This document shows positions 5,043 to 53,145 of a stretch of DNA of 64,000 nucleotides, piece after piece. Origin of the DNA: Gammaproteobacteria bacterium (GTDB lineage: Bacteria > Pseudomonadota > Gammaproteobacteria > SZUA-140). The translations under genes and the position numbers were made by a program. The stretch is from assembly GCA_026982565.1 (NCBI GenBank), contig JALSGV010000201.1, positions 27,658-91,657 of the forward strand, in the 5' to 3' direction. The notes beneath the pieces are model-generated. The model made no database searches and was not told where the DNA came from. It saw only the letters and a list, made by a program, of their open reading frames with translations. The stretch's first letter is position 1. The number at the start of each line of letters is the position of its first letter.

Positions 5043-5081
5043 TAGACCGAATATCACCAGTCAGTCGCACCTGGATTATTT

Positions 5082-5953: not shown

Positions 5954-5956
5954 GGC

Positions 5957-8076: not shown

Positions 8077-8181
8077 GGCGCACCTCCTCAATATTGAGTT
8101 GCCGAACCAATAATGGCCGCGGGCTGGCGCTGAACGCGGCGAAGCTCAACCCGCTTCTTCCAGGGACCATTCTGGCACAGG

Positions 8182-8484
8182 CTACTCCAGCGTCGCAATA
8201 AATGACTCGGCCTCGGCGATAGATGCGCGCATGTCCGCAATGAGTTTCCTTACATCCTTGCCGATACTGGCCACTTCCGTATCCAGGCCGCCGATGGCGC
8301 GGGCATTGAGATTGTGTTTCAGATACAACACATGATCACGAAAACGCACCAGCACCTTGTCCCTGCTTTTCTCCGCCTTGACCATGGAGCGGTTCAGAGC
8401 GGCATATTTTTTCTTCGTGGCGCGCAGCTTGCGCTGGCTGTCCGTCTTGAAACGGGCATTGGAGACAAGACCGATCTCTCCCAT
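8182..8484 (-). CDS. hypothetical 100-aa protein (lysine/arginine-rich, predicted helical)
   Basis: Intact ORF between the sensor kinase and nfeD. I recognise no family. Confidence 0.3.
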   Translation of the reverse strand: MGEIGLVSNARFKTDSQRKLRATKKKYAALNRSMVKAEKSRDKVLVRFRDHVLYLKHNLNARAIGGLDTEVASIGKDVRKLIADMRASIAEAESFIATLE

Positions 8485-8508
8485 TCGTCGAACAAGTCAT
8501 TCAGGTCA

Positions 8509-9870
8509 TCAGGATGGAAAACAGACGGCCACGCGGGCGCCCCCCAGCTCTTTGGATGATCCGATCTCGCAACGCCCCTTGTAGACCTTGACGATGTCTT
8601 GCACCATGGCCAGCCCGATACCGTGTCCTGCGACGTGCTGATCCCCGCGAATACCCCGTTTGAGAATTTCTTCCTTCATCTCCGGGGCGATGCCCGGACC
8701 ATCATCCTCTACAGTGATCACCAGCCAGCCCTCGCCTTCCCCTCCTGAAGAGACATTCTCCGCCCGCACGGTAATCCTGCTGTGACACCACTTGAAGGCA
8801 TTGTCCAGCAAATTGCCCATAATCTCCATGAGATCGCCTTCATCGCCTGCCAGGTGAATATCAGCGGCAATTTCCATCCGGCACGTCACGGCCTTGTCGG
8901 CATAGATTTTCTCCATCGCCTGCAACACTTTCCTGACCACGGGCTCTATGGCGACGGACGCCACCATGACCGTTCGGCCCGATGTCGCGCCGCGCTGCAG
9001 ATGGTATTCGATGATGTGATCCATGCGTCCCACCTGGTCCTCGACCGTATGACGCAATTCATCCTGGGAATGCCCGGTTTCCATGGTGCTGCGGATCAAC
9101 GCCAGGGGTGTTTTGAGACTGTGGGCCAGATCCCCCAGGGCATTGCGGAAACGCTGCAGATGGTCGCGCTCGCTTTTCACCAGTGCATTGAGATTGTTGG
9201 TCAGGGCGCGCAATTCCTTGGGATAACGCCCTTCGAGCTGGGTCTTGCGCCCGCTCTCGATATCGGACAGGTCTTCGGCCACTTGGCGCAGCGGCCTCAA
9301 CCCCCACCGCAGGATGCCCCCCTGCACGGCAAGAAGAAGAATGGCCACGGCGCCCAGGGAACCCCACAGAGTACGGCGGAAACCGGCAATCTGCGCATGC
9401 AGGGTATCCAGGTCCTCAGCGATACTGAAGGTATAGATCTCTTCCAGTGGCGTGTCCTCAGACCAGCTGACGCCAATGCTGAAAGTATACAGTCTTGCCT
9501 GGGAGTCCAGCGTAACCTCCCTGCTGATGTATTCACCACGCTCCAGTCCCGTGGAGAAAGGAATATCGATGTCATTCATAGAGGGCGACCGCCAGGAAAA
9601 ACGGCCGTCGTTACGCTTCGCCTGTGCATAGAGGCCTGATCCGGGCGTGAAAAAGCGCGGAATGGGCAGCGCATTCATCAAATGCACTTCCCCCTGAATA
9701 TCCGGCTCCATAACGGCCACCAAGGCATAGGCGTAGCCCTGGAGGCGTTCCTGCAGCGCCGATTCCGCGCTGTTGCGGTAGGCCTGGTCGAGGATGACGC
9801 CGGTGAGGCCAAAGAATCCCGCCAGCACGATACTGGCGGCGACAAGAATGCGCAGGTGCAGGGAGATCAT
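8509..9870 (-). CDS. two-component sensor histidine kinase (PhoQ/EnvZ-like: TM, periplasmic loop, TM, HAMP, HisKA, HATPase_c)
   Basis: Two TM segments. H-box LAHSLKTPLALI. N, G1 and G2 boxes present (LLDNAFKW, DDGPGI, GHGIGLAMV). One-nt overlap with the upstream response regulator. Confidence 0.85.
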   Translation of the reverse strand: MISLHLRILVAASIVLAGFFGLTGVILDQAYRNSAESALQERLQGYAYALVAVMEPDIQGEVHLMNALPIPRFFTPGSGLYAQAKRNDGRFSWRSPSMNDIDIPFSTGLERGEYISREVTLDSQARLYTFSIGVSWSEDTPLEEIYTFSIAEDLDTLHAQIAGFRRTLWGSLGAVAILLLAVQGGILRWGLRPLRQVAEDLSDIESGRKTQLEGRYPKELRALTNNLNALVKSERDHLQRFRNALGDLAHSLKTPLALIRSTMETGHSQDELRHTVEDQVGRMDHIIEYHLQRGATSGRTVMVASVAIEPVVRKVLQAMEKIYADKAVTCRMEIAADIHLAGDEGDLMEIMGNLLDNAFKWCHSRITVRAENVSSGGEGEGWLVITVEDDGPGIAPEMKEEILKRGIRGDQHVAGHGIGLAMVQDIVKVYKGRCEIGSSKELGGARVAVCFPS

Positions 9871-10547
9871 CAGTCACACGCCAGTGCAAAACGGTAACCG
9901 CGCCCGCGCAGGGTTTCGATGGGTTTGATGCTGTTGTCCGGATCCAGTTTGCGGCGCAGGCGCCCAATGAAGACTTCGATGACATTGCTGTCTCGGTCAT
10001 AGTCCTGATCATAGAGGTGCTCCGTGAGGTCCGTCTTGGAGATCACCTGGCCGCGGTGCAGCATGAGGTATTCCAGCGCCTTGTACTCATAGGCGGTCAG
10101 ATCCACGGCCCGCCCGTTGACGCTGACCCGTTGCGCGGCCGTGTCCAGGGAGACAGGGCCACAACGGATCACCGGCTGCGCCCAGCCTGCCGCGCGGCGC
10201 AGCAGGGCATTGAGGCGCGCCATCAATTCCTCCATGTGGAAAGGCTTGACGAGATAATCATCGGCCCCGGCCTCCAGGCCTTCCACCTTGTCCTGCCAGC
10301 GCCCGCGCGCTGTAAGAATCAGGATGGGATAGGTCAATCCCTGTCCGCGCAAACACCGGATGACCTCGATACCCGACAGCTTGGGCAGGCCGAGGTCCAC
10401 CACTGCCACGTCGAAGGGATATTCACTGCCTAGATAGGCCCCCTCCTCGCCATCCTCCGCGGCATCCACGGCATAACCCTGCTGTTGCAGATGGCTCACC
10501 AACTGCTGGCGCAGGGAGGCCTCATCTTCAATCACCAATACGCGCAT
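9870..10547 (-). CDS. OmpR/PhoB-family response regulator
   Basis: MRVLVIEDE…VVDLGLPKLSGIEV…LTAR…GADDYLVKPF receiver domain, plus a winged-helix C-terminus (…LRRKLDPDNSIKPIETLRGRGYRF). Confidence 0.9.
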   Translation of the reverse strand: MRVLVIEDEASLRQQLVSHLQQQGYAVDAAEDGEEGAYLGSEYPFDVAVVDLGLPKLSGIEVIRCLRGQGLTYPILILTARGRWQDKVEGLEAGADDYLVKPFHMEELMARLNALLRRAAGWAQPVIRCGPVSLDTAAQRVSVNGRAVDLTAYEYKALEYLMLHRGQVISKTDLTEHLYDQDYDRDSNVIEVFIGRLRRKLDPDNSIKPIETLRGRGYRFALACD

Positions 10548-39858: not shown

Positions 39859-40143
39859 TTATTAACCCGGCAATAATATATATCGTATTCAGCCATTGCG
39901 TGCCGGTTCGCTGCAAGGCGGCGAAACTTGCTGTAGTCATTCTACAGCAAGTTTCGCCAACGCAGTCAGCGGGACGGCACGCAATGGCCTGTCTTTTAAT
40001 ATCAACCTGTTAGGGACTTCAGGCCTGCGCTGGCACGGCGTTGCGGCGCTTGCCAATGGAATCACCATTGCCTGCGCACCGCGCCTTGTTCCAGCACAGG
40101 CCTGAAGTCCTGAATACGATATATATTGTTGCCGGGTTAATAA
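39859..40143. mobile_element. 285-bp MITE-like element: 34-bp terminal inverted repeats (33/34 match) enclosing two long near-perfect hairpins
   Basis: Left TIR ttattaacccggcaataatatatatcgtattcag (39859-39892). Right TIR ctgaatacgatatatattgttgccgggttaataa (40110-40143). Internal perfect inverted repeats: ccattgcgtgccg/cggcacgcaatgg and ggcgaaacttgctgtag/ctacagcaagtttcgcc. Also gacttcaggcctgcgctgg/ccagcacaggcctgaagtc. Confidence 0.55.
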
Positions 40144-40530
40144 CCAGCCGCGGGATTCCATGTCGATCAAGATGCGTTCCGCGTCTTCTGTTAGTGTGGC
40201 TACATGCTCATGTCCTTTTTTTAGGGCATCAGCCAGCCTGCCGACCCTGACAGAGGGGGTCTCTTTCTCCACAATCTGCGCCAGGTTGGGGGCGCTAAGC
40301 ACAACATCTATCTTCCGTCCCCCTAACTTGAGACTGATGCGGCCCGATATTCTCGCACTCAGCCATGCGGGCTCATCAACCGGATGCGGGATTTCAACCA
40401 GCAGGTCAATATCACCACCACGGGCATTATCATCTGTGCGGGAGCCAAACAAGGTGACTTGCGCCTCATCTCCAGCCAGGTCCGCAATTGCCTGGCGGAT
40501 TATATCAATTTGATACGGTTCTAGTCTCAT
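39937..40530 (-). CDS. minimal nucleotidyltransferase (MNT, Pol-beta superfamily) antitoxin-like protein; 3' end runs into the MITE-like element
   Basis: From the ATG at 40530: MRLEPYQIDIIRQAIADLAGDEAQVTLFGSRTDDNARGGDIDLLVE (GS…DIDL NTase motif). The frame continues without a stop into the element, and the last ~68 codons are element-encoded. The native C-terminus is probably lost. Confidence 0.6.
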   Translation of the reverse strand: MRLEPYQIDIIRQAIADLAGDEAQVTLFGSRTDDNARGGDIDLLVEIPHPVDEPAWLSARISGRISLKLGGRKIDVVLSAPNLAQIVEKETPSVRVGRLADALKKGHEHVATLTEDAERILIDMESRGWLLTRQQYISYSGLQACAGTRRGAQAMVIPLASAATPCQRRPEVPNRLILKDRPLRAVPLTALAKLAVE

Positions 40531-40678
40531 TATTATGCTCTGCCGGGGGAGGGTGTCGAAAAAACCAGTTTTCTTTAGTTGGCTGTGAGGAATGAACTCC
40601 AACATGTTTGGTATTCTATCGTCGTGCTTAACCGGCAGGTAACGCGGAAGACTGTCCGGTTGAAGCAATTGTTCAGCT

Positions 40679-40945
40679 CTATCCGTAGTACGTCCACATT
40701 CGGATAATTTTAACAACACGCTCTTCTTCGTAAACTTGATAGACCAATCTATGTTGAATATTTATTCTTCTTGAATATGCCCCAGACAAGTCACCAACTA
40801 GCTTTTCATAAGGTGGTGGTTTTTTATAAGGATTCTCTTGCAGCAATTCCAGCAACGATTTAGCCTTCTGCTTCAATCCAGATGCTGCAATTTTCTTAGC
40901 GTCTTTTTCTGCCTGTTTTGTATACATTAACTCCCAACTCACCAA
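40679..40945 (-). CDS. yoeB: YoeB/Txe-family toxin (RelE/ParE superfamily)
   Basis: …YSRRINIQHRLVYQVYEEERVVKIIRMWTYYG parallels E. coli YoeB …WSRRITEEHRLVYAV…IAACRYHY. Seven-bp overlap with the upstream antitoxin. Confidence 0.85.
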   Translation of the reverse strand: MVSWELMYTKQAEKDAKKIAASGLKQKAKSLLELLQENPYKKPPPYEKLVGDLSGAYSRRINIQHRLVYQVYEEERVVKIIRMWTYYG

Positions 40946-41181
40946 TCAAGCTCCTTAGAGCACTCTGATATATTTTGACTCATACCTTCTTTAATTGATT
41001 CCCGCATTCCGGGTACTGACAGCAAATGTAGCGTTTCAGCAATTGCATTCCAATCGTCCTCAGACACAAGGACGGCATTAGCTCTTTTTCCCGTAATTAC
41101 AATGGGTTGATGAGTCTCCGCCGCCTCATCAATAAGGCTATAGAGCTTAGAGCGGGCTTCTGTTGCATTCAATATAGTCAT
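40939..41181 (-). CDS. yefM: YefM/Phd-family antitoxin
   Basis: MTILNATEARSKLYSLIDEAAETHQPIVITGKRANAVLVSEDDWNAIAETLHLLSVPGMRESI is a typical Phd/YefM fold sequence. Direct GTAC-containing repeats lie upstream (41195-41230), consistent with a YefM-YoeB operator. Confidence 0.85.
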   Translation of the reverse strand: MTILNATEARSKLYSLIDEAAETHQPIVITGKRANAVLVSEDDWNAIAETLHLLSVPGMRESIKEGMSQNISECSKELDW

Positions 41182-41295
41182 AATAAATACCCCCTCAATA
41201 TAGCGTACGACTAAGCGTACGGTACATCAAGGCCTATTTTGTCCCTTTACAGGGAATCCCGAGGCCCCGAGCTTGGCTCGGCACAAGGTGCCTTG

Positions 41296-41484
41296 TTAGG
41301 CGATATACCCCCATTTCTTGAACTGTTCATGTAATTCAGGCTCATCCTTGAATACTTGGCAATAAATATACTCCGGCGCCAAATCTGCGCCGTTCGGCCA
41401 TACTATCGTTTCAGGCTCATCATCAACTTTTAGTTTGGAAAATATGGACACGTTCTTCAACGGTTCGAACGCCGGCCCTCTCAA
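41296..41484 (-). pseudogene. probable 5'-truncated DUF2442-like gene remnant
   Basis: The 62-aa ORF …GPAFEPLKNVSIF…VDDEPETIVWPNGADLAPEYIYCQV resembles the C-terminal half of DUF2442 proteins. The position where the N-terminal half should be is occupied by REP-like repeats (41535-41665). Confidence 0.3.
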
Positions 41485-41534
41485 AGCGCTTGATAAATCC
41501 GCAACGTGTAAAACAATGCTTTTTTCTCCATTTA

Positions 41535-41665
41535 TCCCCTCACCCCAACCCCTTTACCCTCAAGGGGCACCGAGGTCCCAGCGGGAGAGGGGCTTTTGCG
41601 ACACCCTCCACAGAGGCGGGGGGCTTTTGCGCCTTCCTACGGAGGGAGGCGGTTGGGGGCTTTCT
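41535..41665. repeat. REP-like intergenic repeat cluster (family with core GGAGGGTGYCGCAAAAG / CCCCTCTCCC)
   Basis: cccctcaccccaacccc…gggagaggggcttttgcgacaccctcc…gggggcttttgcgcc. Related copies are at 44725-44800, 53160-53400 and 60128-60200. Confidence 0.6.
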
Positions 41666-41698
41666 TGAGGGCAAGATAGGTTGTTCGCCACCTCACTT

Positions 41699-42031
41699 TT
41701 AGGCTCTTTCGTAGAATACTTTTCCCGCCCTTTTTATATGCTCGATCAGATTCTCATTGTCTATCTGATCATATAACGACAAGTCTGTTTTATAGGGCAA
41801 TAACAAATCGTCTATCTTCAGTTCAATGGCTTGCAGATCCTCCCATTTCATCGCTGACCCTATTATTGTCAGGTCGATATCTGACGCTGGTCTGTAGTCG
41901 CCTTTAGCCCTTGATCCATAGATTATAACCTGTTCTACAGCAGGCGTATCCGCGAATATGCTGCGTATTTTCGAGATGACTTGTTCGTCCAGGCCAAAGT
42001 CCGGCTCGATATTATTGGGCGCTGTGTTCAT
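41699..42031 (-). CDS. minimal nucleotidyltransferase (MNT) protein, second copy in the triad
   Basis: …VIIYGSRAKGDYRPASDIDLTIIG… Four-bp overlap (ATGA) with the upstream HEPN gene. Confidence 0.75.
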   Translation of the reverse strand: MNTAPNNIEPDFGLDEQVISKIRSIFADTPAVEQVIIYGSRAKGDYRPASDIDLTIIGSAMKWEDLQAIELKIDDLLLPYKTDLSLYDQIDNENLIEHIKRAGKVFYERA

Positions 42032-42450
42032 GCAGCACCTTCCTGCAGATGCGCCAGGCGCTTATCCAGCGCCATGAACAGTTGATGATATTTGTCCTTT
42101 ATATTTGTTAGTATCGATTCCGCCGTTTCTTCATTGTACGTATGCGAGGTTCGATTTCGATCAACCAGCATTTGCATCCAACCCTCACCATCTTCGATCA
42201 ATCCTCTGCTGAAGCTTTCCCGTATGGTGTCACGAGAACCCACGATTCCACCGATACCTTGCCATAATAGGTAGTCCTTCAGCGCATTCCAGGCAAGCTC
42301 GTAGGTATATTCAAAAGCCTGAATCACGCCCTGTTTTTCCAAAGGCGTCAATTCCCGTTCCGCCATCAGGCGCATGGCGCTATCCAGCTGTCCAAAAGCC
42401 TTTTTGAATTGGGCGTATCTTTGCTTCCAGCGGATATCTTCGTTTGTCAT
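42028..42450 (-). CDS. HEPN-domain protein (HepT / HI0074-like nucleotidyltransferase substrate-binding protein; putative RNase toxin)
   Basis: Rx4HxY motif present: DRNRTSHTY. 140 aa, helical. Four-bp overlaps on both sides with the flanking MNT genes. Confidence 0.8.
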   Translation of the reverse strand: MTNEDIRWKQRYAQFKKAFGQLDSAMRLMAERELTPLEKQGVIQAFEYTYELAWNALKDYLLWQGIGGIVGSRDTIRESFSRGLIEDGEGWMQMLVDRNRTSHTYNEETAESILTNIKDKYHQLFMALDKRLAHLQEGAA

Positions 42451-42740
42451 AGCTGAATTCCTGTTTTTTTCGCCATGCGGTGGATGGCTCTCAATGGCGC
42501 ACTCCGGAGTTTTAGGTCGATGTCTATTCGCTGTTCCCCGATACGCTCCCAGAGCTTGCTGAGTATGCGGAATTTGTGCTTTAACAATTTCTCCTGGATT
42601 TCCGTTTCAGCATAAAGATCGATATCACCACCATGGCGGGAATCATCTAAGCGTGACCCAAAGAGGTAGATATCTGCCGTAGGGTCCACGCCGTGAATGA
42701 CCTCGCGGATTGCCGTTTTTTCATGTTCATTCAAGCGCAC
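42447..42740 (-). CDS. minimal nucleotidyltransferase (MNT) protein, first copy in the triad
   Basis: MRLNEHEKTAIREVIHGVDPTADIYLFGSRLDDSRHGGDIDLYAE…. Confidence 0.75.
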   Translation of the reverse strand: MRLNEHEKTAIREVIHGVDPTADIYLFGSRLDDSRHGGDIDLYAETEIQEKLLKHKFRILSKLWERIGEQRIDIDLKLRSAPLRAIHRMAKKTGIQL

Positions 42741-42877: not shown

Positions 42878-44647
42878 TTAGAAAGACCAGATCAGCGGCA
42901 CGAGTACCACGACAATTATACCGACCAGGAGTGTCAGTGGGATACCGATTTTGACATAATCCGAAAAATGGTAGCCGCCGGGTCCATAGACCATGAGGTT
43001 GGTCTGGTAGCCGATGGGGGTGGCGAAGCTGACCGAGGCCGCGACCATGATGGTGATCATGAAGGGCATGTAGTCCACGCCCAGCGCCTGGCTGGCGGCC
43101 ATGGCGATGGGAAACATGAGCACGGCGGCCGTATTGTTGGTGATGACGGCGGTGAACAGCGCGGTGATGGCATAGATCAATACCAGGGCGACGTGGGGAC
43201 TCTCGCTCGTCAGGGCCAGCAGGGTTTGTGCAATGAACTGGGCGGCGCCGGTTGTCTGGAGCGCCTGCCCGATGCCCAGTGAGGCGGCAATCACGATCAG
43301 CACCTGCCAGTCCACGGAGCGCCTTGCCACGCTACCTACTGTACACTTTGTAATCAGCATCAGGCCTGCCGCCAGCATGGCGGCCTTGAGCATGGTCAGC
43401 ACCCCTGTCGCGACGGACAGCACCATGGCGACGAGGATCAGGATGGCGGTGAGGGCATTTTCATGACGGGGCGGGCTGGAATCCTCCAGGCGGCTGATGA
43501 GATAAAAATCCCTTGAATTGCGCTGCTGCTCGATAAAATCCGGGGGGGCTTCAAGCAGCAGGACGTCGCCCGGCCGTAGGACGATGTCGCCGATTTTCAT
43601 TTTCATTTGCTCGCCATTGCGGGCCACGGCGATGATGGCGGCGTTGTACCTGTTCCGGAAGCGGCTTTCCCTGATCGTCTTCCCCGCCGTGGGGAAGCTG
43701 TCGGAGACGACGGCCTCGACCAGGCAACGGGTGGTCCTGGGCATGTTGAGCTTGAAGACCTGGTTGGTCGCCGGCCTGAGGCCGCGAATCTTTTGCAGGT
43801 CGACCACTGATTCCACCACGCCCGCGAATACCAGGCGGTCGTTGGCCTGGAGCTTCTCCTGCGGTGAAACGGCCGGCAACAGGGCGTCCTTGCGGTCGAT
43901 TTCTATCAGATACAGGCCGGGCAGCTGGCGCAGCCCCGCCTGCTCGATGGTTTTGCCAATCAGCGGCCCGTCGGGATCGACAATCATCTCCACGGTATAG
44001 CCGCGCACGTCCGAAAACTGGCTGATGGCGGAGCGCCGGTCGGGCAGCAGCCATTTGCCCAGTACGATGACGGCGATGATGACGAATAGCGTCAGGGGGA
44101 GGCCTATCCACGCCAGTTCGAATATCCCCAGGCCGGAGGAGCCCGTTTCCTTGATCAACAGGCCGTTTATCACCAGGTTGGTGCTGGTGCCAATCAAAGT
44201 ACAGGTGCCACCCACCATGGCGGCATAACTCAATGGTATCAGCAGTTTTGAAATTGAAAGGCGGTACCGCCGGGACCAGTCCTGGATGGCGGGGATCATC
44301 ATGGCGACAACGGGCGTGTTGTTGAGAAACGCGCTCATGGCCGCGACCGGGGTCATCATTCTGACCTGCGCCCCGGCAAGGGTTTTGGGGCGCCCCAGGA
44401 TGTATTCAACCACCCAGGCGATGGCCCCCGTTTCCTTCAGCCCGGAAACGACGACATAGAGGGCGCCCACGGTCACCATGCCCTCATTGGCCAAGCCGGC
44501 CAGGGCCTGCTCGGGAGAGAGGATTCCGCCGACGAGGAGGAGCGTCAGGCCGCCCATTAAGATGACATCAGGGGGGATCCGGTTCAGGACCAGCAGGAAG
44601 AAGCAGAGGCCTATGACCGCCAATGTTACCCAAGCGTCAATTTCCAT
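42878..44647 (-). CDS. DASS/SLC13-family anion permease with two internal TrkA-C (RCK_C) domains; likely sulfate or other divalent-anion transporter
   Basis: 589 aa. N- and C-terminal transmembrane repeat units flank two soluble TrkA-C-like modules (…GYTVEMIVDPDGPLIGKTIEQAGLRQ…; …RCLVEAVVSDSFPTAGKTIRESRFRNRYNAAIIAV…). Lies immediately upstream of cysC. Confidence 0.75.
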   Translation of the reverse strand: MEIDAWVTLAVIGLCFFLLVLNRIPPDVILMGGLTLLLVGGILSPEQALAGLANEGMVTVGALYVVVSGLKETGAIAWVVEYILGRPKTLAGAQVRMMTPVAAMSAFLNNTPVVAMMIPAIQDWSRRYRLSISKLLIPLSYAAMVGGTCTLIGTSTNLVINGLLIKETGSSGLGIFELAWIGLPLTLFVIIAVIVLGKWLLPDRRSAISQFSDVRGYTVEMIVDPDGPLIGKTIEQAGLRQLPGLYLIEIDRKDALLPAVSPQEKLQANDRLVFAGVVESVVDLQKIRGLRPATNQVFKLNMPRTTRCLVEAVVSDSFPTAGKTIRESRFRNRYNAAIIAVARNGEQMKMKIGDIVLRPGDVLLLEAPPDFIEQQRNSRDFYLISRLEDSSPPRHENALTAILILVAMVLSVATGVLTMLKAAMLAAGLMLITKCTVGSVARRSVDWQVLIVIAASLGIGQALQTTGAAQFIAQTLLALTSESPHVALVLIYAITALFTAVITNNTAAVLMFPIAMAASQALGVDYMPFMITIMVAASVSFATPIGYQTNLMVYGPGGYHFSDYVKIGIPLTLLVGIIVVVLVPLIWSF

Positions 44648-44724
44648 GGTGAGCTACCGGTTGTCCTGTCGGCATGGGTTTTCTGTCCAGGTGTATCGTT
44701 AAATCGTATACGGCGCGCCTCCAT

Positions 44725-44800
44725 CACTCCCCTCACCCCGGCCCTCTCCCGGAGGGAGAGGGGGCTTGTTTGGGCGATGGCGTGTTTGAGTGGGAGAGGA
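44725..44800. repeat. REP-like intergenic repeat (same family as 41535-41665)
   Basis: cccctcaccccggccctctcccggagggagagggggcttgtttgggcg…gagtgggagagg. Confidence 0.55.
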
Positions 44801-44831
44801 ATTCCGCGCCGGGCTCGTGATCGTGGCTTGG

Positions 44832-45443
44832 TTATTTCTGGATCACGCCCCGTTCCAGGAGGAGATTGATCACCTTGGCGGCGCTTTCCTCCAGGGACTC
44901 ACTGCCCGTGTCAACGGTCAATTCGGGATTCAGCGGTTCTTCATAGGGCGAATTGATGCCCGTGAATTCCTTGATCTCCCCTGCCCTCGCCTTTTTGTAG
45001 AGCCCTTTTACATCACGCTCCTCGCAGATGTCCAGGGAACACTTGCAGTAGATCTCGAAAAAATCACCCTCAGCGTTGATCTTTCTGACATTGTCGCGGT
45101 CCGCCCGGAAGGGGGAAATAAAGGCCGTCAGACTGATCACGCCCGCCTCCACGAAGAGCTTGGCCACCTCGCCGATGCGGCGGATGTTCTCCACCCGGTC
45201 CTCATTGGAAAAACCAAGATCTCCGCAGAGCCCATGACGGATGTTGTCGCCATCCAGAACATAGGTGCGGCACTTCATTTCGTAGAGCTTTTCCTCCACG
45301 GCATGGGCCAGCGTGGATTTCCCTGAACCCGACAAGCCGGTGAACCACAGGATGACGCTCTTGTGGCCGTTCAGTTTCTCACGGGCTTCACGGTCGATGG
45401 TGGCATGGTGCCACACCACGTTGCTGCTGACTTTTTTTTCCAT
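44832..45443 (-). CDS. cysC: adenylyl-sulfate (APS) kinase
   Basis: Walker [12 protein letters not shown]. Also …[12 protein letters not shown]…GFS…DR.ENIRRI…ISPF… APS-kinase motifs. 203 aa. Confidence 0.9.
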
Positions 45444-45569
45444 GTTTTTTATTCCTCAATAGTCGCAATTTGTAAATTATCTTATGCAGATCTGATTGAT
45501 CTGCTACCGCTTGTCGATCCCACCGGCAAAGGGCGCGCACCTGCGTCCCCGCATTCTCCCGACAGGGCA

Positions 45570-45800
45570 TTATGCTGCTTTGATTACAGCTTCCTCTATA
45601 TTTTTTGGTAGGCTTACATAAATAAAGTATTCTTCTGGATACAAATAATCCTCACCAGACTCATCTATCACCCGTATTTGCTTGCGTTGCTCCGCCTCTG
45701 AATCTGGAAGCGCCTCATATATCTTTCTCTTTTCCAGAGAAGCAGGGTAATCTTCGTTTTTTATACAGATAACCAATTGATGTGATTTCATATTTCTCAT
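45570..45800 (-). CDS. hypothetical small acidic protein (76 aa)
   Basis: Intact ORF in a low-GC patch. Acidic (many D/E). Located downstream of the basic 87-aa ORF. No family recognised. Confidence 0.35.
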   Translation of the reverse strand: MRNMKSHQLVICIKNEDYPASLEKRKIYEALPDSEAEQRKQIRVIDESGEDYLYPEEYFIYVSLPKNIEEAVIKAA

Positions 45801-45810
45801 GGTTGTTGAC

Positions 45811-46074
45811 TTAATCCAGGTAACGTTTGATTTTTATTTCCTTTTTTCCACTGCCTGTCGCTTCATACCAGTGTACTTCGGCGCGTACTATCGACCCATC
45901 AGTCAATTTGACCTTCGCCACACCTTTTCTTTTTTTCCATTTTCCTTTGCCATATATCTTCTGTAATCTGGACAGCTCGCGAATTCTTTTCCCTGTCGCA
46001 AATGTCTCCTGATTCTCAATCCTTCCGATTATTTCAAATTGCATTAAGCGACTATTCCCTGTGCCCTTGCCCAT
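45811..46074 (-). CDS. hypothetical small basic protein (87 aa, Lys/Arg-rich)
   Basis: Intact ORF in a low-GC patch, 10 bp upstream of the acidic ORF. No family recognised. Confidence 0.35.
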   Translation of the reverse strand: MGKGTGNSRLMQFEIIGRIENQETFATGKRIRELSRLQKIYGKGKWKKRKGVAKVKLTDGSIVRAEVHWYEATGSGKKEIKIKRYLD

Positions 46075-46094
46075 GAGCAGATTCTTGGCTGGTA

Positions 46095-47141
46095 TCAGTG
46101 GGCTTTGCCTCCCCGGCTGCTGTCGAGCACCCGGTAATTCTCAATATACCAGTTATAGGCATCTTCTATGCCATGCCTGAGCTCAATTTTTTGCTTCCAG
46201 CCCAGGGCGCTTATGCGGCTGATATCGAGAAGTTTACGCATTGTGCCATCGGGTTTCGACGTATCAAAGACCAAATCCCCTCCGAACCCGACGATATCCT
46301 TGACCAGCAGGGCCAGCTCCCTGATGGTGATGTCCTGGCCGCAGCCGATATTGACCAGTGGCAGAGCATAGGTCGCTGGCCCGGACACACGGGGATTGAG
46401 AGCCTGACCGAAGGTCTCGCCTGGCAGGCCCATGAGGTACATGCAGGCATCGGCCATGTCGTCACTATGGAGGAATTCCCGGCGTGGATTGCCCGTGCCC
46501 CAGACGGTGACGGTGTCCTGGCCACTGGCTTTTGCTTCATGCATTTTCCGGATCAGCGCCGGCAACACATGGGAGTTTTCGAGATCAAAATTATCCCCTG
46601 GGCCATAGAGGTTGGTGGGCATCACCGCCAGGTAGCGGGTGCCGTACTGACGATTATACGCCGCGCACATCTCGATGCCGGCGATCTTCGCAACAGCATA
46701 GGGGCTGTTGGTGGCCTCCAGCGGCCCGGTCAGCAGATACTCTTCCCTCATCGGCTGCGGGCAGTCCCGGGGGTAGATGCAGGACGACCCAAGGAACAGC
46801 AGGCGCTTGACCCCCGTGCGCCATGCCTGATGAATGACATTGAGCTGGATGGCCAGGTTCTGCTGTATAAACTCAGCGGGACAGGTTTTATTGGCCATGA
46901 TCCCACCCACCTTGGCGGCGGCAAGAAAGACATACTCGGGTTTTTCATTTTCGAAGAATGCTTGGACTGCTTCCTGATTGGTCAGATCCAGCTCGCGGTG
47001 AGTGCGCGTGATGAGGTTTTTGCAGCCAGCGCCTTCGAGTTTCCTCAGGATGGCGCTGCCGACCAGGCCCCGGTGCCCCGCCACATATATTGGGGATTCA
47101 GGGTCGAGGGGCGGGGATTGTGTGTCTGGATTATCTGGCAT
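46095..47141 (-). CDS. fcl: GDP-L-fucose synthase (GDP-4-keto-6-deoxy-D-mannose 3,5-epimerase/4-reductase)
   Basis: …IYVAGHRGLVGSAI…LAAAKVGGI…SSCIYP…YAVAKIAG… SDR-fold Fcl/WcaG signature. 348 aa. Confidence 0.9.
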   Translation of the reverse strand: MPDNPDTQSPPLDPESPIYVAGHRGLVGSAILRKLEGAGCKNLITRTHRELDLTNQEAVQAFFENEKPEYVFLAAAKVGGIMANKTCPAEFIQQNLAIQLNVIHQAWRTGVKRLLFLGSSCIYPRDCPQPMREEYLLTGPLEATNSPYAVAKIAGIEMCAAYNRQYGTRYLAVMPTNLYGPGDNFDLENSHVLPALIRKMHEAKASGQDTVTVWGTGNPRREFLHSDDMADACMYLMGLPGETFGQALNPRVSGPATYALPLVNIGCGQDITIRELALLVKDIVGFGGDLVFDTSKPDGTMRKLLDISRISALGWKQKIELRHGIEDAYNWYIENYRVLDSSRGGKAH

Positions 47142-47187
47142 TGATTCTTCGTCCTACTGCTTTCGGGGGGCTTTTATGTCAAGAACC

Positions 47188-47706
47188 CTATTCCCCGCAT
47201 AGCACTATCTTTTTCGGCAACCTCTCCTCGTTGACGCCCATGCGCACCTTGGCATAATCACGGATCTTGTTATAGGCGTTAAGCAGAAGATGGCTGTATT
47301 CCTTCGCCATTTTCAGGTCTTCCGCAAAGGATTCCGGACTCTGCATGTGTTCATGTACTAAGCGGTTGCGCAATTCCCGGGCCTCAAGCCATCGCTCAAC
47401 GCTGTCCATTACACCCAGTTGCTCAGCACGGTTCAGGTTCTCTATCAGACTGCCTGGCCTTTCCGCCTGGGCCATAAGCCATCGGGGAAGGAGCTTATCC
47501 GCTATGGTATCCTGCATGCGGCCGAACCGGGAGACAAAGGCTTCAAGCCGCTCAGCAATCTCCGGCGCGGATTCCAGTCCGCGCACCCAATCTGCCGTAA
47601 TAGCACAGGCATCCAGCCGCCCCCAACTGTAAGCAAGGTGCCTTCCCTCATGGGAAACGATATCCAGAGTATGGAGAAAGCGGTCTACCGGCAAAACCTT
47701 GTTCAT
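47188..47706 (-). CDS. HEPN-like putative toxin partnered with the upstream MNT
   Basis: 172 aa, helical, with RNRLVHEH (Rx4H, a HEPN-type motif). The ATG overlaps the MNT stop (ATGA at 47703-47706). Confidence 0.55.
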   Translation of the reverse strand: MNKVLPVDRFLHTLDIVSHEGRHLAYSWGRLDACAITADWVRGLESAPEIAERLEAFVSRFGRMQDTIADKLLPRWLMAQAERPGSLIENLNRAEQLGVMDSVERWLEARELRNRLVHEHMQSPESFAEDLKMAKEYSHLLLNAYNKIRDYAKVRMGVNEERLPKKIVLCGE

Positions 47707-48002
47707 AGCTGCACCCCTGAGCGTAATGCTTCCTCATGTACGGCTTGACGCTGAGTCTCTGGATCGAGAATCAAGACATCGATGGGTTGGTCGCCAAGAC
47801 GGACCTGGAGACGGGCCACGAATTTTAACACCTTGCGTTCGCGTTCGCTGACAGGGTGTTCAGAACGGACAAGAAGATCGATATCGCCACCACGAGCTTC
47901 ATCATCGACGCGGGAGCCAAACAAGAGAACACTGGCATCCGGACCAAATATCTCATGCACGGTCTCGCGGATTACGGATTTTTCTTCATCGGTGAGGCGC
48001 AC
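47703..48002 (-). CDS. minimal nucleotidyltransferase (MNT) antitoxin-like protein
   Basis: (V)RLTDEEKSVIRETVHEIFGPDASVLLFGSRVDDEARGGDIDLLV. The N-terminus aligns with the other MNTs in this window (MRLNEHEK…, MRLEPYQ…). This favours the GTG start at 48002, five nt after the gmd stop, over the in-frame ATG at 48056 inside gmd. Confidence 0.65.
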   Translation of the reverse strand: MRLTDEEKSVIRETVHEIFGPDASVLLFGSRVDDEARGGDIDLLVRSEHPVSERERKVLKFVARLQVRLGDQPIDVLILDPETQRQAVHEEALRSGVQL

Positions 48003-48006
48003 CTTG

Positions 48007-49095
48007 CTATTCGTGGTAATCAAAGGTCCTGAACCCTTCCCGGCGGCAGAGTTCATCGCGTTCCGCTGTTTTGAGATCCTCCCGCACCATTTCCGCAACT
48101 AGTTCGTCCAGCGTAATCCTTGGCTGCCACCCCAGCTTTTCCCTGGCCTTGCTTGCGTCTCCCAGCAGGGTCTCGACTTCCGTTGGCCGGAAATAGCGTG
48201 GATCCACCGCCACAATCAGTTTACCCGTATGTTCGTCAAAACCTTTCTCTGCTTCACCCTCGCCTTCCCAGCGTATGCCGATGCCAAGCTCCTTCGCGGC
48301 GGCATTGACGAAATCCCTGACGGTGTATTGTATACCACTGGCTATAACGAAATCTTCCGGCTCATCCTGCTGCAGCATCAGCCACTGCATTTCCACGTAG
48401 TCCCTGGCATGCCCCCAGTCGCGCCTGGCTTCCAGATTTCCCAGAAAAAGGCAGTCCTGCAGCTCAAGCTTGATGCGCGCCAGGGCGCGGGTGATTTTCC
48501 GGGTAACAAAGGTTTCACCCCGCAGCGGGCTTTCATGATTGAACAATATGCCGTTACAGGCATAGATGCCATAGGCCTCGCGGTAATTGACCGTGATCCA
48601 GTAGGCATAGAGTTTTGCCACCGCATAGGGTGAGCGGGGATAGAATGGCGTTTTTTCGTTCTGAGGCACTTCCTGGACCAGACCATAGAGCTCGGAAGTG
48701 GATGCCTGATAGTATTTTGTTTTCTTTTCAAGTCCAAGAATACGGATCGCCTCCAATATACGCAGGGCGCCGAGAGCATCGGAATCAGCGGTGTATTCCG
48801 GTTCCTCGAAAGAAACCGCGACATGGCTCTGGGCAGCCAGATTATAAATTTCATCAGGCTGCACCTGCTGAATCACCCGGATCAGGCTGCTGGTATCCGT
48901 CATATCGCCGTAGTGAAGGACGAAATGGCGGTTTTCAACATGAGGATCCTGATAGAGATGGTCTATGCGATCGGTATTGAAGAGGGAGGTGCGGCGCTTG
49001 ATACCATGTACTTCATACCCCTTGGCCAACAGGAACTCAGCGAGGTAAGCGCCATCCTGACCGGTAATACCAGTAATCAAAGCCCGCTTTTTCAT
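48007..49095 (-). CDS. gmd: GDP-mannose 4,6-dehydratase
   Basis: [37 protein letters not shown]…YGDMTD…YNLAAQSHV… is the canonical Gmd sequence. 362 aa. Confidence 0.95.
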
Positions 49096-49210
49096 GTCAT
49101 GCCCCTCGTATCGATCGGGTGGCTTTGGCTATTGACCAGCCTGGAAGAGAAAAAACCAGCTGATCCCTCCAGAGCGCTGCCCTGAATGTGCGTACTTTAG
49201 ATAGACCCTT

Positions 49211-50689
49211 TCAATCACGCCCGTAGTTATCCTCAAAACGGACGATGTCGTCTTCACCGAGGTATGAGCCGGATTGCACCTCGATAAGTTCCAAGGGCAG
49301 GGCGCCGGGATTCTCCAGTCTGTGCGTCACGCCGATGGGGATATAGGTAGACTCATTTTCACTGATCAGAAAGGTTTCATCACCCTTGGTGACTCTGGCC
49401 GTCCCCCTGACGACGATCCAGTGCTCGGCCCGATGGTGATGCATCTGCAACGAGAGTGAAGCCCCAGGATTGACGGTGATGCGTTTGACCTGATAGCGCT
49501 CTCCCCTGTCGATACCCTCGTAGTTCCCCCAGGGACGGTGAGCAAGGCGGTGTATCTGATGCTCTGTGCGGCCATCCTTTTTGAGCTGACTGACGATTTC
49601 CTTGACCGCCTGGGCCTGGTCCTTATGGGCGACCAAGACGGCATCGGCGGTTTCCACGACGACGATATCATCCAGCCCCAGGGCAGCCAGCAGACGGTGC
49701 CCCGAGATGATCAGGGAATTCCGAGAATTGATGGCAATGACATCCCCCTGAAGGATGTTGCCGTTTTCATCCCGGGGCAGGACCTCACAAAGGCTTGACC
49801 AGGCGCCCACATCAGACCAGCCAGCATCCAGGGGAATGACATAGGCCGTGGTGGCAGTATCAACCGATTCTGCCGCGGTTTCCGTCAGGTTCTCCATCAC
49901 GGCATAATCGATGGAGTCGCTGGGACAGCTTTCGAAACAATCCTCCGCCACGCGATAGAAATCGCCATCCTCCTTTCCCAGGTTATAGGCTTCCTGGCAG
50001 GCAGTCAGGATACCGGCCTGGTACCGGCCGATGTTGTCCAGCCAGGTCTTCGCCTGCATCATGAAGATACCGCTGTTCCACAAATAGCCGCCAGACGCCA
50101 CGTAAGCCTCGGCGGTCGGGGCATCAGGCTTCTCCACGAATTGCTCAAGAATGCAGGGTTCGGGATGTTTTTCACCCGGCAAGGCGCGGCCTTTCTTGAT
50201 ATAGCCAAACCCGGTTTCCGGCCTGTCCGGGACGATGCCAAATGTCACAATCCCCCCCTGGGCCGCGATCCCGGCCCCAGACAGAACAGCATCGTGAAAA
50301 GCCTTGACATCGAGAATCAGATGGTCAGCGGGCATGATCAACATGATGGCATCCGGCGCCCCCTCAGAAACCCGCAGCGCCGCCAGTGTGGCCGCGGGCG
50401 CCGTATTCCGCCCTATGGGCTCCAGCAATATCTTGTCATGAGCCTGATTGGCCTGGCGCAACTGCTCGGCGACAAGGAAACGGTGGGTTTCGTTACAGAT
50501 GATGAGTGGCTCAGCAATCCTGATTTCATCGGCGCCTTGACCCTGCAGGTCTGACAGACGATCCACCGTTGCCTGGAGCAGCGTCAGGTCACCGCAGGGG
50601 GCCAGGAGCTGTTTGGGATAGTATTCTCGCGACAAGGGCCACAGGCGGGTGCCGGAACCTCCGGACAAAATAACAGGCTGGATGATCAT
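49211..50689 (-). CDS. manC: mannose-1-phosphate guanylyltransferase / mannose-6-phosphate isomerase (type II PMI-GMP)
   Basis: PVILSGGSGTRLWPLSR…YPKQ… NTP-transferase N-terminus. C-terminal cupin with …HHHRAEHWIVV.G.A…. Confidence 0.9.
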   Translation of the reverse strand: MIIQPVILSGGSGTRLWPLSREYYPKQLLAPCGDLTLLQATVDRLSDLQGQGADEIRIAEPLIICNETHRFLVAEQLRQANQAHDKILLEPIGRNTAPAATLAALRVSEGAPDAIMLIMPADHLILDVKAFHDAVLSGAGIAAQGGIVTFGIVPDRPETGFGYIKKGRALPGEKHPEPCILEQFVEKPDAPTAEAYVASGGYLWNSGIFMMQAKTWLDNIGRYQAGILTACQEAYNLGKEDGDFYRVAEDCFESCPSDSIDYAVMENLTETAAESVDTATTAYVIPLDAGWSDVGAWSSLCEVLPRDENGNILQGDVIAINSRNSLIISGHRLLAALGLDDIVVVETADAVLVAHKDQAQAVKEIVSQLKKDGRTEHQIHRLAHRPWGNYEGIDRGERYQVKRITVNPGASLSLQMHHHRAEHWIVVRGTARVTKGDETFLISENESTYIPIGVTHRLENPGALPLELIEVQSGSYLGEDDIVRFEDNYGRD

Positions 50690-50763
50690 CCGTATATTTT
50701 AACAAAAATATCAGTTACTTGCATTCTCATGCCCAACCAGGGGAAAGGGATCGACGGCTGAGT

Positions 50764-51822
50764 TTACTGTGCGACATCGAGCTTCTTTTTCTTCTTGACC
50801 TTTTCCGAAAATTCTTGTGCAAATACGGCAGTCAGTGCCGCGACCAGGCCCAGTACAGCGGCCAGAACAATGATAAGTTTGCGGTTGGGCGCCGTCGGGT
50901 TCTGAGAGCGCATCGTTGGCGTGATCGCCCGCGTCTTGATGATATTGGCGATCTTGGCCTTCATTTCCAGGATCTTCTCCTGCTGTTCCGCCTGGGCACG
51001 GCTGTTATTTGCCAACTCCTGTTGCAGCAAATCCCGCTCCGATGCCAATCCCAGGTGCAGTTGCTCTATCAACATGGATTCGCGCTCCTGATACTGCTGG
51101 ATTTCGTTGTCAATGAGCAGCAGGGTCATGGCCTTGGCCTCACCCGTCACCTCGCTGACTGCCTTGATGCGGTTTTTCCTGGATTCCTCGATGACCTTGC
51201 CGATTTCATCGATCTGTTTGGTAATCAGCTTGGATTTCTCATCGAGGCGCTCTATCTGGTTTTCGGTAAAGACCGCTTTATCCTGCAGTTCACCCAGTTT
51301 GTTTTCTGCGCCATGCAATTGGGCCTCGAGTTCCGCTTTAATGACAGAAATCGTACTATCATGATCTTTTGCAATCTTATCGACGATGGATTGATGCAGT
51401 TCCGCCAGAAGGAGGTTCTCACCTTCCCTACCTTCACTGCTCAATACTACGATTTCGCTTCCCTTGGGGATCGCGGCAGCTATATTGATATTTGTGCTCT
51501 CTTCAGGATGGGTGCTTCCATATTCATGGATGACCAGAGGTATGTAACTCTGCTGCAATTTGGCCAATACGGTGCCTGGCTCTTCCAACAATCCATCAGT
51601 ACTGCGGGCAATTTCTATAGAGGTTGTATAGGTATATTTGTTGCTTTGCACCAGCGCAACGCCCAGTCCCAGCAAGACTGCCCCCACAAGAATAGTTACA
51701 AGCAGTTTTTTCCGTTTCTCCAATATCAACCAGAGATCCACCAGGCTGATCTCATCCTCCTGGTAGTAGGTGTGTAAGGCCTCGATCTCCTGGGGCAGGA
51801 TTTGTCTTTTTTCGCTATTCAT
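50764..51822 (-). CDS. wzz: O-antigen chain-length determinant (Wzz, PCP-1 family)
   Basis: N-terminal TM (LLVTILVGAVLLGLGVALV), a long periplasmic coiled-coil region, C-terminal TM (LIIVLAAVLGLVAALTAVF) and a lysine tail. 352 aa. Confidence 0.8.
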   Translation of the reverse strand: MNSEKRQILPQEIEALHTYYQEDEISLVDLWLILEKRKKLLVTILVGAVLLGLGVALVQSNKYTYTTSIEIARSTDGLLEEPGTVLAKLQQSYIPLVIHEYGSTHPEESTNINIAAAIPKGSEIVVLSSEGREGENLLLAELHQSIVDKIAKDHDSTISVIKAELEAQLHGAENKLGELQDKAVFTENQIERLDEKSKLITKQIDEIGKVIEESRKNRIKAVSEVTGEAKAMTLLLIDNEIQQYQERESMLIEQLHLGLASERDLLQQELANNSRAQAEQQEKILEMKAKIANIIKTRAITPTMRSQNPTAPNRKLIIVLAAVLGLVAALTAVFAQEFSEKVKKKKKLDVAQ

Positions 51823-51902
51823 CCTAAATCTCGATATTCACGTATTGCGCCAGGGCTGAATTGTAGACAACCCCTGTTGCCTGTCAATCATGTCACTTCT
51901 AT

Positions 51903-51940
51903 AAAAACAAAAAAACGGCCCTGCATGACAAGGCCGTTTA
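51903..51940 (-). terminator. Rho-independent terminator downstream of comEA (hairpin plus T-tract on minus strand)
   Basis: Minus-strand reading: AAACGGCC-ttgtcatgcag-GGCCGTTTTTTTGTTTTT. Confidence 0.5.
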
Positions 51941-52007
51941 TTGATCCTCGGCGACTGGCGGATACGCAGTTGAGCAACTGCGTACCCGCCCGAAGAGTCA
52001 ATGATGA

Positions 52008-52310
52008 TTATTTTTTGGCATGCTTCCCGGTATTGTCACCGGTCGTCAGATGCCGCCTGTTCTTGTCTATCGTGACCGGCCCGATCCCCTTGATATTGAC
52101 CAGCTCATCCACTGTCCTGAAAGGCCCGTTTTGCTCCCGGTATCTAACGATTTCCTGAGCCGTTTTCATGCCGACGCCGTTTATTACATCTGCCAGCTCA
52201 GTTGCGCTCGCCGTATTGACATTGACGATGTTGACGGTATTTGCGGAAACCAGCCCTGAAAGAAACAGCAAGCTGGCAATAAAAAGTATCGCCCATATTT
52301 TCGTTTTCAT
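52008..52310 (-). CDS. comEA: ComEA-family helix-hairpin-helix DNA-binding protein (periplasmic DNA receptor)
   Basis: Signal peptide, then …VNVNTASATELADVINGVGMKTAQEIVRYREQNGPFRTVDELVNIKGIGPVT (tandem HhH). Confidence 0.8.
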   Translation of the reverse strand: MKTKIWAILFIASLLFLSGLVSANTVNIVNVNTASATELADVINGVGMKTAQEIVRYREQNGPFRTVDELVNIKGIGPVTIDKNRRHLTTGDNTGKHAKK

Positions 52311-52419
52311 TTTTACACACTCCCTTGTGTAGAGATTTAACGCTTATCCAGAGGGCACACCCGCCCCCGGATTCCATGCTCCTGGAGCGCTTACAAGCGT
52401 ATCATAAACGCCAAATGCG

Positions 52420-53145
52420 TCAAGCAGTGGCGAGCGCCTCGTCGATCTCCGCCTGAACGGAGTTGAGCGCTGCAGTCGGATTTTGCGCTGCGGTGATGGC
52501 CCGGCCGATGACCAGGAAATCACTGCCGTTCCTGAGCGCCTTTGCAGGGGTCATAACGCGTTTCTGATCCTGTGTCTGCCCGCCGGCAGGCCGTATCCCC
52601 GGGGTCACAAGGCAAAACGCCCGGCCAAACCTGGCCTTCAGCATGGCGGCCTCAGCGGCCGAACATACGACCCCATCCATGCCGGCGTCCCTTGCCAGGC
52701 CGGCAAGGCGCGCCACATTGTCTGAAACGCTGCCCTGCAATCCCGTTTCCCGTATATCTTCCTCATCCATGCTGGTGAGAATGGTCACGGCAATCAGCAA
52801 GGGCCTGCGCGCGCAGCTGTCTACAGCCTCCCGCGCCGCCTCCATCATGCGCCGTCCACCCAGCGCATGGATATTGAGCATCCATGCGCCAGTGCTGGCG
52901 GCTGCCCGGCATGCCTTGGCGACAGTATTGGGAATATCGTGGAATTTCAGGTCGAGAAAGACCTCGAAGCCCTTTGCGTTGAGCTGCCTCACCACGTCAG
53001 GACCACCGGCGGTGAACAGTTCCTTGCCGACCTTGAGGCGGCACAGCGATGGTTCCAGCCTTTCAGCCAGGGCCAGCGCCTGCGCCGGATCGGGATAGTC
53101 CAGTGCAACGATGATACGATTATGGTCGTTTTGCTGTTGTTGCAT
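52420..53145 (-). CDS. pyrF: orotidine-5'-phosphate decarboxylase
   Basis: …IIVALDYPD…[10 protein letters not shown]…[13 protein letters not shown]… are canonical PyrF motifs. Start taken at [13 protein letters not shown]. The ORF extends to 53169. Confidence 0.9.

Follow-up and report, generated by a model that had tools for sequence, protein, structure and literature searches.

Why would a gene pair of the toxin-antitoxin (TA) type lie between gmd and fcl, two genes of an O-antigen sugar operon? The question is raised by a 64,000-nucleotide stretch of contig JALSGV010000201.1 (positions 27,658 to 91,657; assembly GCA_026982565.1, Gammaproteobacteria bacterium), which is referred to here as the window and is numbered from its first nucleotide. 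A co-directional run of genes on the minus strand of the window comprises wzz, manC, gmd, a gene for a 99-residue MNT protein, a gene for a 172-residue protein with a HEPN fold, fcl, two small open reading frames (ORFs), and cysC. An earlier note on this DNA, made without database searches, had described an MNT/HEPN pair placed between gmd and fcl on the operon strand, and its coordinates all hold. We think it likely that the pair is a TA module of the HepT/MntA type (type VII-like) with a divergent HEPN subfamily, which entered the gmd-fcl junction in an ancestor of the clade and has since been passed on together with the operon. The pair would add to the HepT/MntA-type family a member that is new and embedded in an operon, and it misses the literal definitions of that family three times, as it has no Pfam HEPN domain, an x9 spacing in the MNT motif, and a His in place of a Tyr in the toxin.

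Results

The MNT gene is located at 47703-48002 on the minus strand and starts with GTG. Its product, a predicted antitoxin/adenylyltransferase, matches PF01909 (NTP_transf_2) with E = 3.4e-8 and 34 bits (cut-off 21), and it matches NF047752 (MntA_antitoxin) with E = 7.6e-5, which is under the cut-off of that model. The catalytic motif in the translation, G29-S30-x9-D40-I-D42 (FGSRVDDEARGGDID), is encoded at 47877-47918 on the minus strand. In an alignment of the homologous MNTs (A3), the residues F, G, S, R, D, G, G, D, and D are invariant, and the x9 spacing (FGS-RVDDEARGG-DID) is found across the subfamily. The MNT and HEPN genes are adjacent and co-directional, and the MNT stop and the HEPN start share an ATGA overlap at 47706-47703 (minus strand, 47703-47706), just where the earlier note had read it.

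What is the 172-residue partner, encoded at 47188-47706 on the minus strand and predicted to be an RNase toxin? At default thresholds, it has no match in Pfam or NCBIfam. Below threshold, PF08780 is matched with 13.4 bits (cut-off 31.8) and PF01934 with 12.5 bits (cut-off 23.5), and such sub-threshold matches to both models are seen in 34 of 35 family members. A word-indexed search gave 776 homologues, nearly all of them unnamed and free of Pfam domains, and an exhaustive profile search gave 1809 clusters (at 50% identity) with E ≤ 1e-3, and 585 with E ≤ 1e-10. R113, N114, and E119 are invariant in the family alignment, and H118 and Y120 nearly so, giving an R-N-x3-H-E-Y block; a second block in the N-terminal half, F61/Q65-D66/K71, is invariant and specific to the family. 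The family profile matches HI0074 with E = 0.008 over the RN...H.Y stretch, and several HEPN toxins more weakly. The AlphaFold (AF2) model, built from 35 sequences, is all-helical with a pLDDT of 92.9. When the PDB was searched with Foldseek, 15 of the leading 16 matches were HEPN toxins, HEPN-MNT complexes, or related small HEPN-type proteins; they include 8xdj, 8xeh, 8yuf, 7bxo, 6m6w, 7ae6, HI0074, TTHA0048, and YutE, with probabilities of 0.9-1.0 and a target TM of up to 0.76. The model and these matches agree with the four-helix bundle of the HEPN fold. From the predicted fold and the profile matches, we conclude that the protein represents a divergent HEPN family, which is above threshold in no current Pfam model. 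The label HEPN had been a guess in the earlier note, and the fold model, the profile match to HI0074, and the sub-threshold Pfam matches now provide support for it. Furthermore, an MNT gene is located about 120 nt or less upstream of the HEPN gene in approximately 68 of 80 metagenomic loci, and the exceptions are mostly contigs that end beside the HEPN gene. The PADLOC matches, PDC-S09 for the MNT and CARF_HEPN (E = 0.016) for the partner, are weak and uninformative.

How long has the pair been at this site? In a scan for gmd with one genome per species, 80 loci were obtained, and fcl follows gmd in 61. The two genes lie within 150 nt of one another in 53 of these 61, as expected from the earlier statement that gmd and fcl are normally adjacent; the site is thus empty in these more distant loci. 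The best gmd identity to the window among the 80 is 85%, and none of them is a close relative. The close relatives were found by a search with the HEPN protein. One is a metagenomic contig (L087) with the order wzz-manC-gmd-MNT-HEPN-fcl-cysC, and the other is a hydrothermal-vent metagenome-assembled genome (MAG), GCA_011322035.1 (L167/L168), with pyrF-comEA-wzz-manC-gmd-MNT-HEPN-fcl-cysC-CitMHS, the same order as the window. The gmd product of the window is 95% identical to its orthologues in L087 and L167. Thus, the empty site that was expected from an alignment with relatives is found in distant genomes, but the nearest relatives carry the pair. The order gmd-MNT-HEPN-fcl occurs only in these nearest relatives; had it been universal, with another function for the two ORFs, it would have spoken against the reading in the earlier note.

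The rate of synonymous substitution (dS, Nei-Gojobori) between L087 and L167 is 0.25 for the MNT gene and 0.29 for the HEPN gene, and 0.34-0.50 for wzz, manC, gmd, and fcl. Between the window and either relative, dS is 0.9-1.6 for the pair and 0.9-1.7 for the same four genes, a comparison that is coarse since values above 1 are near saturation. The pair has a ratio of nonsynonymous to synonymous rates (dN/dS) of 0.09-0.23, compared to 0.07-0.10 in wzz, manC, and fcl. With 0.54-0.57, the GC content of the pair does not differ from that of the flanks. The nearest pair in another context, L003, has 75% DNA similarity, which is confined to the coding sequence. Because the relatives share the gene order, the dS of the pair matches that of its neighbors, and both genes are under purifying selection, these sequence comparisons indicate that there was one old insertion, followed by vertical descent. 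The GC content and dS speak against recent horizontal acquisition, and the idea of a fresh, one-off wedge does not survive the shared placement in the relatives. Inspection by eye beside the pair showed no attC-like core sites (GTTRRRY/RYYYAAC) that would point to an origin as an integron cassette. The 3' junction differs as well: a spacer of 46 nt (47142-47187, minus strand) separates the HEPN gene from fcl in the window, whereas the relatives have none, and their longest fcl reading frame overlaps the stop of the HEPN gene.

Where does translation of the MNT begin? Between the gmd stop, TAG at 48009-48007, and the GTG at 48002-48000 there are 4 nt (caag). The distance of 5 nt in the earlier note was counted from the last base of the stop to the first base of the start, and the actual gap is 4 nt. 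The note had also preferred this GTG to an ATG inside gmd, and three lines of evidence agree with that choice. MRL stands at the aligned start in 9 of 10 homologous MNTs in A3, including both of the other MNTs whose N-termini the note had quoted and which are indeed present in the window (at 42447-42740, and from 40530 downward); a length of 99 residues is shared by the closest homologues; and the aligned junctions of L087 and L167 have a conserved spacer of 78-102 nt after gmd, followed by ATG-CGC-CTG. In the window, the spacer is gone, and with it the A of this ATG, so that ...TAGCAAG is fused to G-TGCGCCTC. As read from this alignment, the GTG is the ancestral start position, and the 4-nt gap is a deletion derived in the lineage of the window. 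The start changed from ATG to GTG because the deletion of the spacer also took the A of the ancestral codon. Hence the tight junction between gmd and the MNT gene is present in the window, as had been stated, but it is derived there, and the relatives have retained the spacer. The alternative start, the ATG at 48056 inside gmd, is the choice of the gene caller on public copies of the contig and would give an MNT of 117 residues. The 18 extra residues are unmatched in 9 of the 10 homologues in A3, the sole homologue with an N-terminal extension (L011, a longest-ORF call) does not align with them, and the corresponding position in the syntenic relatives is the noncoding spacer. There is no Shine-Dalgarno sequence ahead of the GTG, so the MNT is most probably translated by reinitiation after gmd, with TAG-caag-GTG (48000-48009, minus strand), as aligned with L087 and L167, as the probable site of termination-reinitiation coupling.

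The gmd-MNT spacers of the relatives (L087, 3817-3894, and L167, 4603-4704) contain GACGGTAG, which is like the core of the ops/JUMPstart element and may have arisen by chance. Such an element was considered for the window and rejected, as GRCGGTAG occurs 3 times in the window, with 2.3 expected, and not at all in the operon leader. The RNA of the L087 spacer folds no better than shuffled sequences (z = 0.49), and Rfam gave no match at E ≤ 1 over 45000-52500 of the window.

Is the pair transcribed with the operon? The best candidate for the operon promoter is a sigma-70-like match, TTGACA-16-TACAAT, with 11 of 12 consensus positions, at 51860-51887 on the minus strand, ahead of wzz; only its likeness to the consensus marks it as a promoter. 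The preceding gene has a terminator-like hairpin just ahead of this site, at 51939-51913. From there to fcl, a consensus scan of the minus strand, which included 47100-48100, gave no promoter-like site. The HEPN-fcl spacer has a TTGACA without a usable -10 element, and the scan called no promoter there; none was scored in the gmd-MNT spacer of the relatives either. The terminator-like hairpins around the pair are few and weak, lie within coding sequence, and occur at chance frequency. A promoter of the pair's own or an isolating terminator was thus looked for and given by neither scan, and there is no room for one at the junction. These consensus scans favor the view in the earlier note that the pair is part of the operon, and co-transcription is the simplest reading.

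What is the effect of the substitution next to the RNase motif? The motif of the HEPN protein is R113-N-R-L-V-H118-E-H120 (47347-47370, minus strand; family alignment), in which R-x4-H is intact. Residue 120 is Tyr in 118 of 120 homologues (consensus RNRLVHEY) and His in the window copy (RNRLVHEH). A class I HEPN/MNT system is defined by an MNT with GSX10DXD and a toxin with RX4HXY (PMC7641770); the window copy has R-x4-H and lacks the Y. In HepT, Y104 receives three AMPs from MntA, and its substitution leaves toxicity and weakens neutralization (PMC7641770). The equivalent Y105 of the Legionella protein is also AMPylated, and a self-occluding tetrameric state restrains that toxin as well (PMC11586414). 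By analogy with HepT, canonical neutralization at residue 120 cannot occur in the window copy. Either binding or oligomerization would suffice for silencing of the window toxin, or the toxin would be weak. The twofold restraint of the Legionella toxin leaves room for control that is independent of the Tyr.

Could the pair then be a disarmed remnant, in which Y120H and the missing spacer and ATG mark the onset of decay in a non-functional pair carried along by the operon? Both derived changes are confined to the lineage of the window, and the GTG has no Shine-Dalgarno sequence before it. Since substitution of the Tyr in HepT impairs neutralization (PMC7641770), a viable cell with H120 suggests that the toxin is harmless. 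Nevertheless, both ORFs are intact, and of the 81 columns conserved in the family, the HEPN protein departs from only 2, one of them Y120H; 2 is also the family median. R113, N114, H118, E119, and the catalytic residues of the MNT are retained. The identity to the L003 pair is 78%/74% for the window and 80%/75% for L087, so there is no sign of acceleration. We regard decay as unlikely, although it is the alternative that survives best.

Is this placement peculiar to one clade? The neighbors of the HEPN family were surveyed without preselection in the 80 metagenomic loci, which gave 128 flanking proteins. The commonest flanking Pfam families are ABC2_membrane (9), GDP_Man_Dehyd/Epimerase (5), ABC_tran (5), Wzt_C (4), FkbM methyltransferase (4), thymidylate synthase (4), and DHFR (4). 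Neighboring genes are co-directional in 36 of 43 cases upstream and in 33 of 44 downstream. From one to three MNT-HEPN pairs are located between wzm and wzt, all co-directional, in L093, L129, L136, L158, L159, and L161, which come from several diverged metagenomic lineages, and the arrangement is partial in L121, L127, L131, and L133. Members with about 40% identity occur between manC and gmd (L028, L044), beside fcl (L030), and in a polysaccharide cluster (L011). In a Thiobacillus MAG and related contigs, the pair is located between murA and hisG, beside Wzy, wzm, and wzt. In Sedimenticola, it is near msbA, a NusG-family gene, and rml genes, and in Sulfuriferula, near genes for a sugar nucleotidyltransferase, a dehydratase, and a DegT aminotransferase. 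The family is also found away from polysaccharide genes, 5' of thyA-folA or combined with other MNT/HEPN pairs in tandem TA arrays.

Modules of other families are found at the same junction. L012 has a Polbeta-type MNT with a PF01934 HepT between gmd and fcl, L030 has an MNT with PF08780 and an MNT with DUF86, L015 and L030 have ORF6N proteins, and L057 has a 23S-IVS protein. O-antigen operon junctions thus repeatedly host such modules and are favored by this HEPN family, which is an observation and not a statistic. With the family found again and again in O-antigen operons, pure accident becomes less probable than the earlier note had assumed. A literature search found no paper that links HEPN/MNT modules to O-antigen clusters, and a check for a polysaccharide region around SO_3165/SO_3166 of Shewanella likewise gave nothing. 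In L030, the genes are stacked between gmd and fcl (8083-10464), with an ORF6N gene and two MNT-HEPN pairs, and fragments like the 5' end of fcl, MKPSAKIYLAGHRG... (8634-8870) and MHLQDKIYLAGRGG... (9507-9674), stand ahead of successive modules; these suggest that the fcl start was duplicated with each insertion or recombination. In L161, where the wzm-wzt locus is at 4643-8716, Wzt is fused to an FkbM methyltransferase.

These contexts bear on a second alternative, in which the pair is not a TA system but a two-subunit nucleotidyltransferase, MNT plus an HEPN-type substrate-binding subunit, for the biosynthesis or control of surface polysaccharide. Its models are kanamycin nucleotidyltransferase and HI0073/HI0074, and it would account for residence in O-antigen operons. 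The recurrent, tight, co-directional sites between paired genes (gmd and fcl, manC and gmd, wzm and wzt) are what it would predict, and so are the long retention under purifying selection and the dispensability of the acceptor Tyr in the lineage of the window. By contrast, the RNase-type R-N-x3-H-E-Y block is nearly invariant in the family, the pair also occurs in unrelated contexts (thyA-folA, murA-hisG, tandem arrays), and it is missing from 53 of 61 gmd-fcl operons. Furthermore, the PF01934 and PF08780 pairs at the same junction elsewhere point to a permissive site rather than a role in the pathway. We consider this enzyme quite improbable, more so than decay.

Neighboring genes

The first gene of the run encodes a wzz-like chain-length determinant (50764-51822, minus strand; PF02706 Wzz and PF13807 GNVR) and is syntenic in L087 and L167. 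It is followed on the same strand by manC, for mannose-1-phosphate guanylyltransferase/mannose-6-phosphate isomerase (49211-50689; PF00483, PF22640, and PF01050), and by a full-length gmd, for GDP-mannose 4,6-dehydratase (48007-49095; TIGR01472, 598 bits, cut-off 415; PF16363, E = 9e-157). After the pair comes fcl (46095-47141, minus strand), for an epimerase/reductase of the GDP-L-fucose synthase type. It scores 478 bits against the GDP-L-fucose synthase equivalog NF047922 (cut-off 500) and E = 1.5e-65 against PF01370 (Epimerase), and it is 54-70% identical to the gene directly 3' of gmd in other genomes. A comparison of N-termini shows an extension of about 17 residues ahead of the Rossmann start IYVAGHRG. 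From these scores, the product may be a related GDP-6-deoxyhexose reductase rather than GDP-L-fucose synthase. Two other loci have unusual fcl frames. That of a Chlorobiaceae MAG (L066, 8143-9258) has an N-terminal extension of tandem STQHSAL repeats, and that of Methylobacillus glycogenes JCM 2850 (L045, 8096-9069) is split into 69 and 258 residues by a frameshift or an assembly error.

Between fcl and cysC, the minus strand has two small ORFs (45570-46074), of 87 residues (45811-46074) and 76 residues (45570-45800), with a GC content of 0.44 compared to about 0.57 in the flanks. They are missing in L087 and L167, where cysC directly follows fcl, and neither has a match in Pfam, NCBIfam, or PADLOC. 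They may be a more recent small insertion of two genes. Directly 3' of fcl in the conserved order, cysC (APS kinase) and a gene for a transporter of the CitMHS/Na-sulfate-symporter type (42878-45443, minus strand) are syntenic in the relatives, which hints that the polysaccharide is sulfated. In L171 and L172, Wzt is fused to a sulfotransferase.

The same polysaccharide region also has a cluster of TA-type genes at 39937-42740 (minus strand), which L167 is without. It includes a three-gene MNT-HEPN-MNT unit (MNT, 42447-42740; PF08780 HEPN, 42028-42450; MNT, 41699-42031), a pair recognized by eye as YefM-like (40939-41181) and YoeB-like (40679-40945), and the MNT from 40530, which has a tail of about 100 residues without a recognized domain.

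Discussion

How might the pair work in this operon? In the mechanism that we propose, the pair has no promoter of its own and would be transcribed from the operon promoter upstream of wzz. The MNT would be translated by termination-reinitiation from gmd, and the HEPN protein by ATGA coupling from the MNT gene. Such coupling of transcription and translation would make the dosage of the pair follow that of the sugar operon. If the pair worked as HepT/MntA does, the HEPN protein would be an RNase, silenced by the MNT through AMPylation of the Tyr next to R-x4-H. As this Tyr is His in the window, silencing there would occur through complex formation, or the intrinsic activity would be low. The selective value could be addiction-type stabilization of a cluster that is often lost under phage pressure, abortive-infection defense, or both, and the recurrence of the family in other O-antigen operons is consistent with such a value.

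The closest known system is HepT/MntA of Shewanella oneidensis (SO_3166/SO_3165; Yao et al. 2020, PMC7641770). In both, a small MNT gene is directly upstream of a small HEPN gene and overlaps it, the MNT has GS...DxD, and R-x4-H is present in the HEPN protein, with x-Y after it in the family; the structures 7bxo, 6m6w, and 6m6u match the predicted fold. Unlike HepT, whose PDB chains are about 130-145 residues, the HEPN protein here has 172 residues and passes no Pfam HEPN model. The MNT motif is GS-x9-DxD, where HepT/MntA has x10, the AMP-acceptor Tyr is replaced by His in the window copy, and the module, which lies within a biosynthetic operon, is without a promoter region to itself. The structures that best match the AF2 model are from the HEPN-MNT system of Legionella pneumophila (8xdj, 8xeh, 8yuf; Jin et al. 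2024, PMC11586414), which also has a short MNT, but the sequence identity is only 12-15%. The best HEPN-type profile match is to the PF08780 (NTase_sub_bind) protein HI0074 of HI0073/HI0074 (1jog, E = 0.008); all scores to PF08780 are under the gathering threshold, and the conserved part of the N-terminal half (F61, Q65-D66, K71) is specific to the present family. A precedent for an MNT-HEPN pair inside a biosynthetic operon is the module in the lysine biosynthesis operon of Thermus thermophilus HB8, which is not in HB27 (Makarova et al. 2009, PMC2701414). That module is strain-specific and so recent, whereas three diverged lineages have the present pair, which has evolved together with the operon.

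Several points weigh against a TA module of long standing in this operon. The x9 spacing of the MNT motif differs from the published GSX10DXD. No Foldseek E value is better than 0.03, and no Pfam model is passed, so the protein does not belong to PF01934 or PF08780 by the thresholds of those models. The GTG has no Shine-Dalgarno sequence, and MNT expression may be very low. The absence of the Tyr from the usual acceptor position is awkward for an active toxin, the dS comparison with the window is near saturation, and the association with O-antigen genes is based on raw counts that have no matched background and include vertically related loci. A recent selfish insertion without polar effects is very improbable, for although MNT-HEPN modules are mobile (HB8 versus HB27, PMC2701414) and the DNA similarity to L003 ends at the coding boundaries, three diverged lineages share the placement, with dS and GC equal to those of the flanks and a dN/dS of 0.09-0.23.

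A TA module inherited with the operon thus remains our preferred explanation. Might the HEPN/MNT subfamily go further, as a dedicated long-term resident of O-antigen/lipopolysaccharide operons, with an activity functionally tied to the production of surface polysaccharide? We think this doubtful, about as unlikely as decay of the pair. If it is true, the module may depend on transcription of its host operon. It might then serve as a guard, penalizing cells that lose or silence the O-antigen operon when under pressure from phages, or as a trigger of abortive infection that senses the expression of the operon, and the Tyr-less copy in the window would be a variant controlled without AMPylation.

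What do these results mean for the HEPN/MNT modules? A sizeable HEPN family, of 1809 clusters, falls under all Pfam and NCBIfam thresholds, and surveys based on Pfam, such as that in PMC7641770, would miss it. The natural change from Tyr to His at the equivalent of the HepT AMPylation site is a lead on silencing without AMPylation. The residence of a TA-type module in a biosynthetic operon up to synonymous saturation, under purifying selection, argues against the picture of a transient selfish passenger. The recurrence of such modules between paired O-antigen genes in several clades provides a lead on the role of HEPN/MNT modules in their hosts.

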